A stretch of DNA of 11,080 nt from Candidatus Hermodarchaeota archaeon. Its GTDB lineage: Archaea > Asgardarchaeota > Thorarchaeia > Thorarchaeales > Thorarchaeaceae. How positions within the stretch are numbered: the stretch's first letter is position 1; the number at the start of each line of letters is the position of its first letter. The notes under the pieces are model-generated. The model did not search any database. It was not told the origin of the DNA and saw nothing but the letters and a program-made list of their open reading frames with translations. Both the position numbers and the translations under genes were made by a program. Where the stretch lies: positions 1-11,080 of the forward strand of contig JBHLLF010000072.1 of assembly GCA_048885865.1 (NCBI GenBank), in the 5' to 3' direction. Below are positions 2,914-11,080 of the stretch, piece by piece.

Positions 2914-4191
2914 ATGCCACTGACAGACTTTCCCAAAGTGGTTGAGATTAAAGATCCGCTGCATGGTTATGTAGCCCTCTCAGAAGTGGAGAAGGCGGTT
3001 ACAGACCTGCGGCTAACTCAGAGACTGAGGACCATTCGTTCACCTGCTGGAGTCTATATGGTCTTCTCGGGTGCTGACACTTCACTAATGGGAAAGCTTC
3101 TGGGATTCATGCACACCACTCACATCTTCATGGACTATCTGGGAGCCAATGAGGAAGAGATTCAGAATGCTCGCCTTGCCGCAATGTTTCTTACGCTTTC
3201 CACAGGTCCTTGGGAGAATGTAATCAACGAATATTTGGCAGTACGTGGACTCAATCGTAAGCAGCTTGCAGAACTAATCATTACGAAATCCCAAGCTGGC
3301 GAGGCGCTTGAACAGTGTGGATATTCCCAAGATGAAGTTGTGAGTTCCATCAAGCGCGGTGTGCAATTGAAGGGCGTTCGTTTTGATTTGGAAACTACTC
3401 CAATAAATCCTGAGCTCGTTGATCGGCTAGAACGAGATTCCTACTTCTCAGGGGTTGAATATGCTCAGCTCGAGTTCCGGAGACTGTTCCAATCTACCAG
3501 GGTTGCAAAGAACAAGATTGCCATAGAACGTGGTGCATTGTTCACCTTTGAGTCATATCTCTCAGCAGGAGCAAACATGTTCGATGCTGTCTATTACCAT
3601 AAAGCTGTGAGAGCCGCCGAACTCATGCTTCTCAGGATATTGGATGAAGCAGGGGCTGAACTCTTTCCTTCGCCTCGAGATGACATCAATGTCTACCTAA
3701 ATCTAGATGATATATCATTCCTGGATCAATTGCTTAATCCACCGGAGGATGCATCAGAAGAAATGCAAACTGCTTGCAAGCTCTTTGAAGACTTCAGCGC
3801 TAGATACCTAATCAAGATGGCAAGTGAACGTGCAATAAGCGATGTTGCGTTTTTAGATTCAGTCTCGACTCCAGATGGATTGTTCAATATCGAGAAAGAG
3901 ATTGCCGATGATGCTGGGATCGACCCAAGTAATGTCTTTGTTGATTACCCTGACAGGCAGTCTGTGAGCTTCTATCCAGGCAAATTTGACATTGAAGACC
4001 TTGTATTCTTCGAGCGAGGCTCCAAGGGCTATGAGTTCTGGCCGGTTGAGGATATCAGCTTGCTTGCGAGGAGCTTTGAGAGAAAAATCAAACTAATTCG
4101 AGTCTATACAACTCGTGGCTATCGTTCAAAGGTAAAGAAAGCCGCCGATGCCCTTCTGGAGAGCATCGATGCTCCTGGAACCACTGATTGA
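2914..4191 (+). CDS. HD-superfamily phosphohydrolase homologue (SAMHD1/COG1078 dNTP triphosphohydrolase-like) with degenerate active site
   Basis: Family scaffold is recognisable: IKDPLHGYV, QRLRTI, YMVFSGA, RLAA...GP, DRLERDSYFSGV, MFDAVYYHKAVRAAELML, YLNLDD. The catalytic HxRFEHSLG and HDxGHGPFSH motifs read TSLMGKLLG and LTLSTGPWEN. Intact 425-aa ORF. Confidence 0.85.
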   Translation: MPLTDFPKVVEIKDPLHGYVALSEVEKAVTDLRLTQRLRTIRSPAGVYMVFSGADTSLMGKLLGFMHTTHIFMDYLGANEEEIQNARLAAMFLTLSTGPWENVINEYLAVRGLNRKQLAELIITKSQAGEALEQCGYSQDEVVSSIKRGVQLKGVRFDLETTPINPELVDRLERDSYFSGVEYAQLEFRRLFQSTRVAKNKIAIERGALFTFESYLSAGANMFDAVYYHKAVRAAELMLLRILDEAGAELFPSPRDDINVYLNLDDISFLDQLLNPPEDASEEMQTACKLFEDFSARYLIKMASERAISDVAFLDSVSTPDGLFNIEKEIADDAGIDPSNVFVDYPDRQSVSFYPGKFDIEDLVFFERGSKGYEFWPVEDISLLARSFERKIKLIRVYTTRGYRSKVKKAADALLESIDAPGTTD

Positions 4192-4262
4192 ATTCTCGTT
4201 AGCATTACCGAGGGAAAAATAGAATAGCTCCTTTCATATTGGCCAAATCAGTTGTGGTCACC

Positions 4263-4712
4263 ATGAACGATGAAGTCACCTCTGAGATTGGTTTTGATGA
4301 TGTTGTGAGAGACCCCAATTTCCTAGCAATACTTCTAGGAGCGGTCCTGTGGCTCGTCGGAGCGTACATCCCCCTCATTGGCCCGCTCTTTATCACTGCT
4401 GGATTTGTCATCACAGTATTTGCTACAGCATCTACAGCTGCTATTCGACCTTCGAAAGGTGCCTGGCCAGGGCTAATTATAGGCTCTCTGATTTATCTAG
4501 TAGGCCTCTACCTGCGATGGTTTCCATTGGTGAGCTTGCTGGCTCCGCTTGTGGAAATTCCTGGGGCTGTGCTCATTCTCTTCTTCGCAATTCCTATTGC
4601 ACTACAATATAGTAATGCGCCTCTAATGGAAACATTCCAGAGTGAATGGGCTAAAAGGTCAAAAACAAGAACTGACGAATCGGAGGAAAAAGATACAGTA
4701 GCAAATGAATGA
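4263..4712 (+). CDS. Small integral membrane protein, about 4 TM segments, internal duplication, unknown function
   Basis: Two hydrophobic hairpins (FLAILLGAVLWLVGAYIPLIGPLFITAGFVITVFA and GLIIGSLIYLVGLYLRWFPLVSLLAPLVEIPGAVLILFFAIPIAL), an acidic N-terminus and a charged C-tail. ATG at 4263 preferred over TTG at 4239. Fills the gap between two + strand genes. Confidence 0.75.
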   Translation: MNDEVTSEIGFDDVVRDPNFLAILLGAVLWLVGAYIPLIGPLFITAGFVITVFATASTAAIRPSKGAWPGLIIGSLIYLVGLYLRWFPLVSLLAPLVEIPGAVLILFFAIPIALQYSNAPLMETFQSEWAKRSKTRTDESEEKDTVANE

Positions 4713-4763: not shown

Positions 4764-6665
4764 ATGGCAAGTATGAATGAAGGAGGCAAGGACCTCCACC
4801 CTGCACGCCACAGGAGAGGGAGTATAATGTTCACTTGTAGGAAATGCAGGGAGCCTTACTTTGTGCTAGCCGCCCAGATAAGGGGCAGGAATCTTAGGGT
4901 CTTTTTACAATGTATCAATGGTCACAAGGACAAAAGGGACCTGTCACAGTTTCAGGCCGACAACGCGGCATTTGAGTTGTTTAAGGGACTATTCAGCTGT
5001 GTACAATGTGGCTCGATAATGGATATCGCGAGCACCGATGCCCATCGAGACAAAGTTGAGTATATCTTTCTCTGTCCGATTCATGGTCCTCAGAGAAGGG
5101 TAGCACCAACCTTGTACCATCCAACGGTCAATCAGCTACGGACAGAAGTCAATGCAGCAAAATCAGTGCTTGATTCCATGAGCTGTCCACGCTGCGGCCA
5201 GGTGTTTGTAATCCATGAAATCGAGGAGAAGGGCGAGTTTCTAGAACTAAAATCGAAGTGTCCCAATGGCCATAGAGAGCTGCGATTCGTGACGCGAGAT
5301 GCCGATGAATCCATTCTGAAGACGGTTCTTAAGCGTCTGGTTCACTGTGATTCATGCGGTTTGCCTTGTAGCATCCAGGACAAGAGTGCTAAGCGGGATA
5401 AAATGCGATTGGAACTTGTGTGTCCGGTTCATGGGTCGCGCAAGAAGGAATTCCCAATAGCCTACGCCTCATTACTTGAAGATGTATCTCAAGCTGTGAC
5501 AGAGGGTTCACGCATTCGCACTACCTTGAAATGTGCTGACTGCGGCGGGGCCCTCTCGATTCGCAGTATTGAAGATTCAAGGGACGAGTACAAGATAAAG
5601 GCCAATTGTGCGGATGGCCACTCATTTGAAATGGTTCAACGCATTGACTGGAGTGATGAGGCTACTGAAGAGATTGCGAGGGCTATTCTGAAATGTGAAA
5701 AATGCGACCTACTAACTGAAATAGGTTCAAGGAAAGTTGATGGAACGAAAGCCGAAATTGAATTGTCCTGTCCTATCCATGGTTCCATGCGCAAAAACCT
5801 CACTGTTGATGCACTCAAGAACTTGGAGAGAATCGAAGAGCAGATTGATAGACAGCCATCTATTGATGAAAGCCTAAAGTGTGTAAGATGCGGGACTCCA
5901 GTCGTTATCAAGGAGTTCAAGATTGGCAAAGAAGCCGTAGAGGCGAAGATCGAATGTCAAAAAGGGCACAGCGATAATCGCTACTACCTCAATTCCCTCT
6001 CGCCAGCAGTTCTAACGACGGTATATGATAAGGCGTATGAATGTCATAAATGCCACCAGCCACTTACTCTCAAGGAAATCGAGCAAGAGGAATCAAAGAG
6101 CACAGTGAAGATGACTTGCGAAAAGCATGGAGAGCGAAAGCATGAGGTCCCTGTTGAACATAGTGCTGCTATAAGAGATGCATTCACCGCTAGGGCGACT
6201 ATGCCATATCTTGAGTCTGTGATGGAAACACTAGGGCATGAAGATATGTGTCAATTCCAGTTTGACGCTGCGGCTGATCCCGAAGAGTTGATTCAAACCG
6301 TAAAGAGTGTGATCGAGCAACATGACCTTCACTTTGTGTCCGAAGACAAATCAGAAACTATGACATCTGCTTGGTATTATGGCATGGGCTTTCGTGGCAG
6401 TCAGTTTGTAGTCGTGGGAACAGTATCGGAAGAGAATCGGGAAATAAAGATACGAGTATTCTCGGATAATGAGAAGAAGCTCAGCACAATTCTGGCGCAC
6501 ATGCGTGAAAATCTCCGAGAAGTACTACTCCGCATCCGTGCGGATGCAGACGATATTCAGCCACTTATCATACAGTGCGAGAAATGCGGTGCTGGACTAT
6601 CGAAGAGAGGGTTGCCCGGGGAAACTACGCTTTGTGAACACTGTGGAGTGCCATTACACTGGTGA
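4764..6665 (+). CDS. Multi-metal-finger repeat protein: 8 Cys3His fingers, alpha/beta C-terminal domain and terminal Cys4 zinc ribbon; unknown function
   Basis: Eight CxxC-x21-Cxx(GH/HG) motifs, then an alpha/beta domain containing AWYYG, then CEKC-x15-CEHC. No signal peptide or TM segment. Start is ATG 4764 or ATG 4827; the latter has a purine-rich AGGAGAGGGAG upstream and lies three codons before the first Cys. Confidence 0.85.
   Translation: MASMNEGGKDLHPARHRRGSIMFTCRKCREPYFVLAAQIRGRNLRVFLQCINGHKDKRDLSQFQADNAAFELFKGLFSCVQCGSIMDIASTDAHRDKVEYIFLCPIHGPQRRVAPTLYHPTVNQLRTEVNAAKSVLDSMSCPRCGQVFVIHEIEEKGEFLELKSKCPNGHRELRFVTRDADESILKTVLKRLVHCDSCGLPCSIQDKSAKRDKMRLELVCPVHGSRKKEFPIAYASLLEDVSQAVTEGSRIRTTLKCADCGGALSIRSIEDSRDEYKIKANCADGHSFEMVQRIDWSDEATEEIARAILKCEKCDLLTEIGSRKVDGTKAEIELSCPIHGSMRKNLTVDALKNLERIEEQIDRQPSIDESLKCVRCGTPVVIKEFKIGKEAVEAKIECQKGHSDNRYYLNSLSPAVLTTVYDKAYECHKCHQPLTLKEIEQEESKSTVKMTCEKHGERKHEVPVEHSAAIRDAFTARATMPYLESVMETLGHEDMCQFQFDAAADPEELIQTVKSVIEQHDLHFVSEDKSETMTSAWYYGMGFRGSQFVVVGTVSEENREIKIRVFSDNEKKLSTILAHMRENLREVLLRIRADADDIQPLIIQCEKCGAGLSKRGLPGETTLCEHCGVPLHW
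4836..6131 (+). repeat. Protein-level tandem repeat, 116-aa (348-nt) period x4, each unit a two-finger pair
   Basis: First Cys codons of the units at 4836, 5184, 5532 and 5880, exactly 348 nt apart. Unit = CxxC-x21-CxxGH-x24-CxxC-x21-CxxHG-x32; the fourth unit lacks a following finger. Confidence 0.95.
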
Positions 6666-9316: not shown

Positions 9317-9859
9317 TTGCCAAAGCCTGAAGACAAAGAGCCTGAATGCGAGCCAATGAGGATGCCCCACTCAATACCCAGAGGTCTCTTGAGACATGTA
9401 ATCATCAGACTCCTCCAATCTACAGATATGACAGGATCTGAAATGATGAGAGTTATGAGTGAGCGGACTGGGGAACATTGGAGTCCTAGTCCTGGGTCCA
9501 TCTATCCTCTGCTTTCCCACTTGGAGGAGGAGGGAATCATTGAAGCGGTCAGAACTGAGGGGAGGAGTAAGACCTATTCCCTCACTGAGGAAGGTCGCGC
9601 TCGGTTCAGTGAGGTTCTTCACAAGCGGGGTGATGTGGAGCACAAGGCAAGGCTCAATCGAATGATGCTGTTGCAGCTTTTAGAACCATCAGACCGTGTT
9701 CATTTTCACATCAGCGCGTTCAATCATGCCATAGATCATATTGCTGATACGATTGAAGAAATATCTGCATCAGAGAAACGAAAGATTGGAACACGGCTAA
9801 AGAAGACATCCAAGAAACTGGACTCGCTAATAAAGCGGGTTGAACTAGGTGAAGCATAG
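9317..9859 (+). CDS. PadR-family winged-helix transcriptional regulator
   Basis: GLLRHVIIRLL...MTGSEMM...WSPSPGSIYPLLSHLEEEGII...KTYSLTEEGR signature, plus a helical C-terminal extension. Start could be TTG 9317 or ATG 9356/9362. Confidence 0.92.
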   Translation: MPKPEDKEPECEPMRMPHSIPRGLLRHVIIRLLQSTDMTGSEMMRVMSERTGEHWSPSPGSIYPLLSHLEEEGIIEAVRTEGRSKTYSLTEEGRARFSEVLHKRGDVEHKARLNRMMLLQLLEPSDRVHFHISAFNHAIDHIADTIEEISASEKRKIGTRLKKTSKKLDSLIKRVELGEA

Positions 9860-9860
9860 A

Positions 9861-11080
9861 ATGGCTAACGAAAACAACAATAAGAAGGGCCGTGGTGCCG
9901 CAATGCGATATATGCTGGGAGGTCTCGCCAGACATCCTGGAGCAATAGCATTTGCACTAACATTGACAGTAATCTCGACTTTGCTAGTGACGATACCTAG
10001 CGTCATCATAGGGATGGCTATTGACGAGCTTGAACTCTCAGGTCTCAGTGCTCAGTTTACGTTCCTGGTCTGGATTATTGTCCTTTTTGGCGTCGCCTAT
10101 TTAGCTATGTACTTCATTGTAGGCTACGTCTGGGCAATCGTAACTCTGAGGTGGGAACGCGACGCACGACAGGACTTCTTCGAGGATCTTCAAGATTTCA
10201 GCATGACTTTCCACGATGAAGTGGATAGTAAGCGCTTGCTCTCGGTCGCAATGCAAGACATCACCTGGGTTCGGTTTTCATTGAATCCTGCTTTGCGGAA
10301 TATATTTGGATCTCTCATCTCAATTGCCATTACAGGGATATACCTCGTTCTAGTAGATCAGACTCCTGGTTTGACTGGTCTGGTATCATTATTCGGTTAT
10401 CCGGTTCCTGTCCTCACGTTAATCATGTTGATAGGCACTCCAATCTATCTGGCATTCGCCTACCGCTATGCTAACGCCGTTGAGCCGGTTCGCAGGCAAC
10501 GTGCTGAGGACATGGAGAAGCTCACATCCATCTCACAGGGTGTATTCCAGGGTATTGAAGTAGTCAGAGCATTTGGTTCTGAAGACCGTGAGCAAGAGAA
10601 GTTCCATGACGCGAGTAAGGCATATGAGAAAATGGTTGCTCGAGAAGGTCAATTAGCTGCCTTCTACATTCCTGCATTAGTCTTGACTGGAATGACCACC
10701 CTAGCCTTTGCGTATGTGGGCTTTGCAGTATTGTACGAGGTACTCACCCCTGGCACAATGATTGCAGTGCTTGGCTTACTCCTTTCACTTGAGGGATTGA
10801 ATTTCCATTTGCCATTTATGCTGCTAATGCTGCGTGGTGGTTATGTGAATGCTCAGCGTATTGTAGACATCCTAAACTGGGAGGATCCATTAAAAGAGCC
10901 GTCCGAAGAGGTCAAAGAGGTCGATTGGTTGGGTGACATAGTATTCGACAATGTCACCTTTGGCTACAACACTAACAATGGAAACACTGAGCATTATGCT
11001 CTGAAGAACTTCAGTATCACAATACCTGGTGGGTCCAGAGTTGCTTTGATTGGAGGACCAGGAGGTGGAAAGAGCACCAT
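9861..11080 (+). CDS. ABC exporter, fused TMD+NBD (type IV, MsbA/MdlA-like), 3'-truncated by window edge; absent from the ORF track
   Basis: Manual translation from ATG 9861 (1 nt after the padR stop) is open to the window end: MANENNNKKGRGAAMRYML..., six hydrophobic segments, WERDARQDFFEDLQ, coupling-helix motif GIEVVRAFGSE, GDIVFDNVTFGY and Walker A GGPGGGKST at 11052-11078. Confidence 0.92.
   Translation, partial: MANENNNKKGRGAAMRYMLGGLARHPGAIAFALTLTVISTLLVTIPSVIIGMAIDELELSGLSAQFTFLVWIIVLFGVAYLAMYFIVGYVWAIVTLRWERDARQDFFEDLQDFSMTFHDEVDSKRLLSVAMQDITWVRFSLNPALRNIFGSLISIAITGIYLVLVDQTPGLTGLVSLFGYPVPVLTLIMLIGTPIYLAFAYRYANAVEPVRRQRAEDMEKLTSISQGVFQGIEVVRAFGSEDREQEKFHDASKAYEKMVAREGQLAAFYIPALVLTGMTTLAFAYVGFAVLYEVLTPGTMIAVLGLLLSLEGLNFHLPFMLLMLRGGYVNAQRIVDILNWEDPLKEPSEEVKEVDWLGDIVFDNVTFGYNTNNGNTEHYALKNFSITIPGGSRVALIGGPGGGKST

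Follow-up and report, generated by a model that had tools for sequence, protein, structure and literature searches.

We asked what a SAMHD1-like protein does once the residues for catalysis are gone, and whether it is maintained at all. The question is raised by a gene from Thorarchaeota (Asgard), located on a stretch of 11,080 nucleotides that is referred to here as the window. The initial annotation of positions 3004–3438, which are the codons D31 to D175 of the open reading frame at 2914–4191 on the plus strand, had proposed that the catalytic site was erased while allosteric guanine-nucleotide residues were kept. The frame was free of stops and frameshifts over all 425 amino acids, as the annotation had also stated. 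All features of the gene described below lie on the plus strand and are given in positions of the window.

The AF2 model of the protein was confident (pLDDT 88.1, pTM 0.87) and had a two-lobe, all-helical HD fold with a C-terminal HD-associated lobe. The best Foldseek matches were SAMHD1, 2hek and EF1143 (TM 0.69–0.77, E about 1e-16). The C-terminal lobe, residues 188–416 (3475–4161), was recognised as HD_assoc_2 (PF19276; E 1.5e-17, 64.3 bits, cut-off 23.1), and this was the sole Pfam match; the Pfam HD family (PF01966) did not match the protein even at E≤10. The NCBIfam search assigned it to no family, the PADLOC profile for the dGTPase of anti-phage defence did not match it, and nothing was found in the Rfam search of both strands of the window. 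In HMMER searches against solved structures the single sequence detected 2hek at E 3.5e-23, EF1143 (2o6i) at 6.6e-13 and human SAMHD1 at about 2e-4, and with the profile of the orthologues these values became 5.6e-35, 9.6e-26 and 5e-12, respectively. EF1143 of Enterococcus faecalis (PDB 2o6i, 3irh, 4lrl) and O67745 of Aquifex aeolicus (2hek), both tetrameric prokaryotic dNTP triphosphohydrolases consisting of HD and HD_assoc_2, were thus the best sequence matches among solved structures, and they share the two-lobe fold and the HD_assoc_2 lobe with our protein. The top structural matches were the core of human SAMHD1 (e.g. PDB 4bzb, 6txc, 7ujn) and fungal SAMHD1 (9mr6), with TM up to 0.77. Sequence similarity to SAMHD1 was detectable solely in the N-terminal 100 residues, and unlike human SAMHD1 the protein has no SAM domain. 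The numbering of human SAMHD1 was verified against the chain index (index + 106). Near the N-terminus lies the family motif DPLHG (D14–G18, 2953–2967), with D14, P15, H17 and G18 invariant in 63 orthologues. It is preceded by K13, which is K in 122 of 124 orthologues and stands in a column that is R or K in 109 of 143 canonical relatives. Both DPLHG and the second conserved stretch named by the annotation, VYYHKAVRAAE (residues 226–236), were present in the translation.

Alignments with HMMER and MAFFT placed K61, L93, T94 and E167 at the positions of the SAMHD1 metal ligands H167, H206, D207 and D311 (EF1143 H66, H110, D111 and D183), and the H...HD...D metal-binding motif is absent. Nearly all of the invariant catalytic and substrate residues of the SAMHD1/EF1143-type dNTPases (COG1078) are missing: Q149, R164, H210, H215, K312 and Y315 are replaced by S43, L58, T97, N102, L168 and R171, and D218, H233 and R366 by N105, R115 and G219, while F64 of the EF1143 dGTP pocket corresponds to M59. 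The HMMER alignments to solved structures reproduced every metal-ligand, catalytic and allosteric correspondence that the annotation had listed. As the H..HD..D ligands are missing, catalysis by this protein is not expected.

In the degenerate first His motif (T56-S-L58-M-G-K61, 3079–3096) H162, R164 and H167 of the canonical HxRFEH are lost; these columns are H, R and H in 94–100% of the canonical sequences and I/T, L and R/K in the orthologues. H206, D207, H210 and H215 of the canonical HDxGHxPFSH are lost in the degenerate HD motif (L93-T94...T97...N102, 3190–3219), within which W100 and N102 are invariant. N105 and R115-K116 (3226–3261) occupy the places of D218 and H233-E234, for which catalytic roles have been proposed, as for the acid-base dyad E122/H129 of EF1143 (PMC3190883, PMC7045340). 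The R115 column is H in 135 of 143 canonical sequences and R in 99 of 124 orthologues, and the column of K116, E in 130 of 143 canonical sequences, varies among the orthologues. Alignments and column counts for the degenerate last-Asp motif (N165-P-E167-L168-V-D170-R171...R174-D175, 3406–3438) revealed changes of D309 to N, D311 to E, K312 to L and Y315 to R, with D314, R318 and D319 kept. Between 3568 and 3603 R366 is lost at G219, and Y374, H376 and K377 are kept within Y227-Y-H229-K230. When a column was called invariant if at least 88% of 143 canonical relatives had the same residue, 16 of the 39 such columns were changed in the orthologue set, including all four metal ligands, R164, H210, H215, H233, E234, Q149, R366 and H162. 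The extent of the catalytic-residue loss is far beyond chance. A metal site rebuilt from H67 and H70, which the annotation had considered as compensating ligands, was ruled out by column counts: most canonical enzymes (91 of 143) likewise have His at the position of H67, and the H70 column is unconserved among the 124 orthologues (E 69, R 26, H 7).

More than one chain contributes to the allosteric pocket of the SAMHD1/EF1143 family (PMC3190883), and the roles of the residues in the guanine-nucleotide part of this pocket, allosteric site 1, have been described (PMC8177086, PMC7045340, PMC3190883). One half of it, the triad in D31...Q36-R37-L38-R39 (3004–3030), corresponds to D137/Q142/R145 of SAMHD1 and N36/Q41/R44 of EF1143, as the annotation had claimed for SAMHD1, with D31 found in 115 and both Q36 and R39 in all of the 124 orthologues. 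The half contributed by a second chain, R297-x3-K301 (3802–3816), corresponds to R451/K455 of SAMHD1 and, by motif and family conservation, to R326/K330 of EF1143; each of the two residues occurs in 124 of 124 orthologues. Alignment of the orthologue profile to fungal SAMHD1 (9mr6) paired both. Between the active paralogue and human SAMHD1, the HMMER alignment was shifted by four residues around R451/K455 because a gap lies next to them, and the mapping was therefore taken from the gap-free 9mr6 alignment together with the shared motif R-[DN]-L-[YF]-K-[FY]-V. E187, a conservative change of D330, and R190, equivalent to R333 (3472–3483), were assigned through the alignment of the active paralogue (PAR1) to SAMHD1 and are present in 124 and 121 of 124 orthologues, while H229 and K230 are present in 124 and 122. 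D137, Q142, R145, R451, K455, R333, H376 and K377 of SAMHD1 hence have identical counterparts in our protein, and at the level of sequence the inter-subunit motif, D/N-x4-Q-R-x-R on one chain and R-x3-K on another, is complete. The site-2 residues N119, D330 and R372 correspond to K13, E187 and A225. At the position of the phosphate-contacting lysine (SAMHD1 K116, EF1143 K14) no Lys but V10 was aligned, in an N-terminus that aligns poorly.

Retention of D31, Q36 and R39 alone is weak evidence, since D-x4-QRxR is kept throughout the family (DQR in 93 of 124 intact relatives), and with such family-wide conservation the retention of the pocket residues may be partly structural. The case is stronger because the trans half, R297/K301, is also invariant and yet was lost in the sister lineage. 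There R297 is changed to S, K301 to P, H229 to N and K230 to P in a reading frame that is still intact, so the fold tolerates the loss of these residues, and their retention in the orthologues is not a trivial structural constraint. The pocket is not always regulatory, as hydrolysis was unchanged in the allosteric-site-1 mutant D34A of fungal SAMHD1 (PMC12042053).

The 124 orthologues (50–94% identity; 119–124 depending on the comparison) all belong to one Asgard family and share the same catalytic losses. At a threshold of at least 50% identity they were confined to the family of the window, where 39 of 43 other genomes had one, and below this set identity fell sharply to about 28–33%. The sister family has a strongly diverged orthologue at the corresponding position that shares these losses, and intact HD motifs were found in neither close nor distant orthologues. 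The check on dN/dS suggested in the annotation gave values far below 1, namely 0.051–0.078 overall and 0.056–0.113 in residues 1–185, the former HD core (three unsaturated pairs for the overall values). Almost every genome of the family had a full-length intact reading frame, at divergences down to 50% identity, and 81 columns were invariant across the orthologues. An apparent internal TAG in two orthologues turned out to be their natural stop codon, at query positions 422–423. The catalytic loss is not recent decay; homology, loss of essential residues, purifying selection and conservation of the losses in orthologues, which together define a pseudoenzyme, were all found here.

The search for an active paralogue, likewise suggested in the annotation, yielded two genes with intact H..HD..D motifs in the same genome, one coding for 431 amino acids (L002, 1492–2787, contig C12) and one for 495 (L003, 1003–2490, minus strand). 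Both match Pfam HD (PF01966), share family, length class and HD_assoc_2 with the pseudoenzyme, and are 26–28% identical to it. The 431-aa paralogue has the allosteric triad in the N/Q/R form of EF1143 and the R-x3-K pair; the 495-aa paralogue is without the guanine triad and has S/L/R instead. The PADLOC dGTPase profile matched the two weakly (E 2e-4 and 5e-5).

Because the catalytic pocket is lost, both halves of the regulatory pocket are kept, selection is strong and two intact paralogues are present, we consider it fairly likely that this member of the tetrameric SAMHD1/EF1143-type dNTPase family is a maintained pseudoenzyme, acting as a non-catalytic, oligomeric regulator or sensor that binds (d)GTP. 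The shared losses, the low dN/dS, the lack of compensating ligands and the paralogues support the annotation's proposal of a retained and repurposed protein that is not a dNTPase, which withstood all the computational attempts at refutation named there. Judged from its residues, the protein is probably able to bind nucleotides but not to cleave them. With dNTP hydrolysis presumably lost, it would still oligomerise and hold GTP or dGTP between its subunits. The protein would then act through binding, as a regulator or sensor that responds to nucleotides. Its output could run through a conserved surface specific to the clade, or through mixed oligomers with the active paralogue. For the former, the beta-hairpin E367-R-G-S-x-G-Y-E-F-W376 (4012–4041; strands 363–369 and 372–377 in the model), which column comparison found invariant in the clade and unconserved among canonical relatives, is a candidate new interface.

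The latter route leads to a more specific explanation, in which the dead protein is a dedicated regulatory subunit that forms mixed tetramers with the 431-aa paralogue to tune or dampen the dNTPase activity of the latter, contributing allosteric but no active sites. Wherever the pseudoenzyme occurred in the family, the genome also had a canonical copy, about 30% identical to it; the allosteric-site residue sets are complete on both proteins, and a pocket spanning more than one chain would suit such an arrangement. However, the two genes are unlinked and lie on different contigs, and with 28% identity after long separate evolution a shared interface may not have been retained. We regard a dedicated subunit as rather unlikely.

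The conserved residues E167, N165, D170, D175, E187, N102 and E106 could in principle hold Mg2+, and a pocket rebuilt from them might support a different, possibly Mg-dependent, reaction. Some changes are conservative and then fixed (D311 to E in about 93%, D309 to N in 123 of 124, D330 to E in 124 of 124, H215 to N invariant), which argues for selection rather than free drift at these columns. A new enzyme is nevertheless improbable: the three His ligands, H210, H233, R164 and R366 were changed mostly to residues that vary between orthologues, and the substitutions of D207 by M/T/S, H210 by N/T/F and Q149 by G/S/A at the centre of the pocket are typical of relaxed constraint. Moreover, no chemistry is known in the HD superfamily without the H..HD..D ligands (PMC8177086).

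Downstream of the pseudoenzyme gene follow the co-oriented genes for a 4-TM protein and a protein with an array of zinc ribbons, with 47 and 51 nt between successive genes. Of 11 family loci examined, 8 had the trio again or the pair lacking the small membrane gene, and the guanine pocket of SAMHD1 can accommodate G-containing ssDNA or ssRNA (PMC10711556, PMC7854603). A nucleic-acid-binding or scaffold protein forming a fixed module with these two neighbours is, however, very doubtful. In three genomes of 97–98% completeness that retain the pseudoenzyme the zinc-ribbon protein was not found with this query, and the pseudoenzyme gene directly adjoins a flavoprotein gene; the sister family has its zinc-ribbon homologue about 40 kb from the pseudoenzyme orthologue. 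With a pI of 4.83 (clade median 5.5) the protein is also acidic, and general nucleic-acid binding is thereby less likely. An obligatory module of the three genes was rejected, as the pseudoenzyme persists in those three genomes, and its two downstream neighbours, the membrane gene and the zinc-ribbon gene, are dispensable. Selection, distribution, the invariant columns and the confident fold effectively refute a functionless relic on its way to loss, even though in one family genome the copy is broken in two near residue 203 and in four others the query matched the canonical paralogue alone, these four being fragmented assemblies of 74–92% completeness.

Returning to the maintained pseudoenzyme, its locus is the site of the single canonical enzyme in some other Asgard families, and the ancestral Asgard locus would have been next to the genes for a TPP-enzyme, a flavoprotein and a DUF2070 protein. 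In a quick ML tree the pseudoenzyme clade was monophyletic (SH-aLRT 99). Two constrained groupings of this clade were compared by AU test and neither was rejected: p was 0.73 (lnL +14.6) for the main Asgard canonical clade as its partner and 0.76 (lnL +25.7) for the canonical clade of the Thorarchaeota. Both constrained trees scored above the quick free search. As a tentative scenario, the dNTPase at the ancestral locus may have gone dead in the ancestor of the order once a second active copy was present, surviving as the former allosteric site only, a stand-alone oligomerising (d)GTP sensor with the ERGSxGYEFW hairpin as a new output surface.

Regulatory or sensory roles are ascribed to two degenerate HD folds, HDOD (PF08668) and the hydrolase domain of RelA, which is inactive. 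The HD-GYP protein Bd1817 is inactive toward c-di-GMP (PMC8177086). Like our protein, all three have inactive or degenerate folds of the HD superfamily, but they belong to other subfamilies, and a dead protein from the SAMHD1/EF1143 dNTPase branch that preserves the nucleotide pocket between subunits is not among them; the Pfam search of the pseudoenzyme gave no HDOD or RelA/SpoT match. A full-text literature search found no description of a dead member of the HD dNTPase branch, to which the pseudoenzyme now adds one. The gain is moderate, since pseudoenzymes are no rarity and the function of this one is deduced. SAMHD1-type enzymes are studied for the control of tetramer assembly and activity by allosteric nucleotides, and a lineage-wide protein without active site but with the guanine-pocket parts of both chains would separate sensing and oligomerisation from catalysis, offering a clean system for the stand-alone role of the guanine pocket. 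If only the allosteric site was indeed kept, the protein would be a natural experiment in which a SAMHD1-type regulatory site outlived its enzyme. The gene would also illustrate how dNTP control came to be divided among three paralogues in an Asgard lineage.

The span 3004-3438 singled out in the initial annotation covered codons D31-D175 of an ORF of 425 aa on the + strand (2914-4191). The window comes from an Asgard archaeon, and public entries for orthologues of the protein carry the label Candidatus Thorarchaeota. The only Pfam match of the protein was HD_assoc_2 (PF19276, residues 188-416, E 1.5e-17); the Pfam HD domain was not found in it even at E<=10, NCBIfam gave no match, and an Rfam search of both strands of the window returned nothing. 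Searched against PDB sequences with phmmer, the protein matched Aquifex O67745 (2hek, 3.5e-23), the Enterococcus faecalis dNTP triphosphohydrolase EF1143 (2o6i, 6.6e-13), human SAMHD1 (about 2e-4), 2q14 and the fungal SAMHD1 9mr6. A profile of 63 orthologues improved these matches to 5.6e-35 (2hek), 9.6e-26 (EF1143) and 5e-12 (human SAMHD1). The AlphaFold2 model from the orthologue alignment reached a pLDDT of 88.1 and a pTM of 0.87, and Foldseek aligned it over its full length to PDB structures of fungal and human SAMHD1, 2hek and EF1143 (E about 1e-16, TM 0.69-0.77). We concluded that the protein is predicted to be a complete, well-folded member of the SAMHD1/EF1143 structural family, belonging to it by homology and modelled fold without the family's defining catalytic features.

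The proposed replacement of the metal ligands H167/H206/D207/D311 (human SAMHD1 numbering, checked from the chain index as index + 106) by K61/L93/T94/E167 was borne out exactly by the HMMER alignments. These agreed equally on the other losses that had been claimed (R164, H210, H215, K312, Y315 and Q149 to L58, T97, N102, L168, R171 and S43) and on the retention of D137/Q142/R145 as D31/Q36/R39. Further catalytic residues, with roles described in PMC8177086, PMC7045340 and PMC3190883, were replaced: D218 (EF1143 E122) by N105, H233 (EF1143 H129) by R115, E234 by K116 and R366 by G219. When 124 orthologues were compared column by column with 143 canonical relatives, 39 columns held one residue in at least 88% of the canonical proteins; in the orthologues 16 of these were replaced, 19 kept and 4 intermediate. 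The replaced columns of the catalytic pocket include Q149, H162, R164, H167, H206, D207, G209, H210, H215, H233, E234, D311 and R366, and L150, F165 and D330 were likewise replaced; D14, Q36, R37, R39, D170, R174, D175, R190, Y227, H229 and R297 were among those kept. D330 was conservatively replaced by E187, which is invariant in the orthologues, and D309 by N165. A carboxylate-based Mg site in the pseudoenzyme is conceivable.

A word-index protein search yielded 203 relatives; the top 120 had 57-92% identity, were nearly all about 424 aa long and without exception carried PF19276 alone. The check proposed in the initial annotation showed that the orthologues share the losses: 119 full-length sequences read R/K, L, M/T/S and E at the ligand positions, with N102, L168 and D175 invariant. 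When 1.84 billion representatives were searched exhaustively with HMMER, the window's own clade ranked first (most distant full-length representative 55% identity), followed after a sharp gap by a lone 413-aa protein (31% identity), also without the HD ligands, and then by canonical relatives at 28-35% identity. Among 134 aligned representatives 124 were intact; the others were only the two dead lineages and the N-terminally incomplete P0200. A survey of 200 genomes from the phylum found orthologues with at least 50% identity solely in the window's own family, where 39 of the 43 other genomes had one; the four genomes lacking such an orthologue were 74-92% complete. The dN/dS was below 1 in three unsaturated pairs (Nei-Gojobori 0.078, 0.051 and 0.069) and also within the former HD core, residues 1-185 (0.056-0.113). 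Recent decay of the gene was ruled out by these low values and the common losses. In one genome of the family the orthologue (L059, G155:C4:160300-162000) was interrupted at about residue 203, its two parts lying in different frames, and is thus a frameshifted pseudogene or the product of an assembly error; another genome, G158, carried two copies on separate contigs.

Retention of D-x4-QRxR alone proves little, because the motif is family-wide (DQR in 93/124 intact relatives). The other half of the guanine-nucleotide pocket is supplied by the neighbouring chain, through R326/K330 in EF1143 (PMC3190883) and R451/K455 in SAMHD1. The equivalent R297 and K301, placed by a gap-free profile alignment to fungal SAMHD1 and by the shared R-x-L-[YF]-K motif, with human numbering from the SAMHD1 chain index, were each present in 124/124 orthologues. 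In the dead sister lineage (P0125, G112 gene) D/Q/R were kept and the R297, K301, H229 and K230 positions read S, P, N and P in an intact ORF. The fold thus tolerates these changes, so that retention in the window's clade would reflect selection on the pocket itself. As judged from sequence, the invariance of the trans half, together with the sister lineage's loss of it, strengthens the case for the pocket. This reading is limited by a fungal SAMHD1 in which hydrolysis does not need site 1 (PMC12042053); a Lys equivalent to SAMHD1 K116/EF1143 K14 was not evident in the pseudoenzyme.

The active paralogues suspected in the initial annotation were present in the genome: one of 431 aa (contig C12, 28% identity) and one of 495 aa (contig C4), both matching Pfam HD with the HxRFxH, HDxGH..SH and DxDKxDY motifs intact. 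The 495-aa paralogue (L003, 1003-2490, - strand) retained these motifs and had S/L/R in place of the guanine triad, so that each of the genome's three paralogues has a different combination of catalysis and allosteric-site residues. The 431-aa copy had its own conserved context (L002, L054): it was preceded by a GPN-loop GTPase and an HTH protein and followed by a 315-aa protein, which also lies downstream in the sister family. A quick tree placed this copy separately from the main Asgard canonical clade.

The dead proteins formed one clade in the quick tree (SH-aLRT 99), comprising the window family's subclade and a long-branched sister-family subclade. The substitutions H162->I, H233->R, R366->A, D330->E and L150->P are common to both as derived states, whereas their HD ligands differ (L, M/T/S, E versus S, E, N) and H167 is still H in the sister. 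This suggests a single ancestral inactivation that would have been followed by separate erosion. AU tests of the dead clade's grouping with the main Asgard or the Thorarchaeota canonical clade rejected neither. The family gene order was TPP_C, [M28], dead HD, [157-aa membrane protein, 633-aa zinc-ribbon array], flavoprotein, DUF2070, PadR, ABC; the copy in the sister family is flanked by DUF2070 and TPP_C and is therefore a positional orthologue. Most other Asgard families gave one match, the canonical enzyme, whose gene adjoined TPP_C near DUF2070 in one family and in two others was no more than 3-4 kb from the flavoprotein gene; such a context was seen at 4 of the 9 loci inspected. The Thorarchaeota active copy had a different, separately conserved context. 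Together these contexts hint that the ancestral Asgard locus of the canonical enzyme is now occupied by the dead gene.

Among the neighbouring genes in the window, Pfam identified a DUF2070 archaeal membrane protein, a flavoprotein, an ABC transporter accompanied by a PadR regulator, an M28 peptidase and a TPP-enzyme C-terminal domain. Downstream of the dead HD gene, co-oriented with it at gaps of 47 and 51 nt, were a predicted multi-pass membrane protein of 157 aa (4239-4712, +), which tblastn placed next to it in 5 of the 11 family loci, and the zinc-ribbon protein P0272 (633 aa, 4764-6665, +). In P0272, paired zinc-ribbon motifs (CxxC ... CPxHG) recur about six times and are followed by a distinct C-terminal domain and a last zinc ribbon, with sub-threshold Pfam matches only (DUF7830, Trm112p); its sister-family homologue lay 40 kb from that family's dead HD gene. 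An obligatory three-gene module was rejected: in three 97-98% complete genomes the pseudoenzyme gene directly adjoined the flavoprotein gene and the window's zinc-ribbon protein had no match, so the association is optional. The M28 peptidase (797-2779, -), with a bacterial TSP3-repeat match, was a divergent insertion separating TPP_C from the dead HD gene; it was missing at this position in two genomes of one genus, in which the HD gene comes straight after TPP_C. The PadR-family regulator (9317-9859, +) overlapped the ABC-transporter membrane gene (9849-11078, +) by 11 nt and the pair was conserved across the family, therefore they probably form one operon.

Full-text literature searches turned up no account of an archaeal clade of dead SAMHD1-type proteins. 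The analysis showed that the protein keeps the family fold, has lost the HD site, retains the pocket residues of both chains, is under purifying selection and coexists with active paralogues. The pseudoenzyme would still form oligomers, bind GTP or dGTP at the subunit interface and act through binding. It could be a stand-alone nucleotide-responsive regulator, with its output through the clade-specific conserved surface, to which the invariant E367-W376 hairpin and several Arg residues specific to the clade belong, or a non-catalytic subunit of mixed oligomers with an active paralogue. General nucleic-acid binding is weakly disfavoured by its acidic pI of 4.83. The protein is best classified as a pseudoenzyme offshoot of the SAMHD1/EF1143 family and not as a dNTPase.
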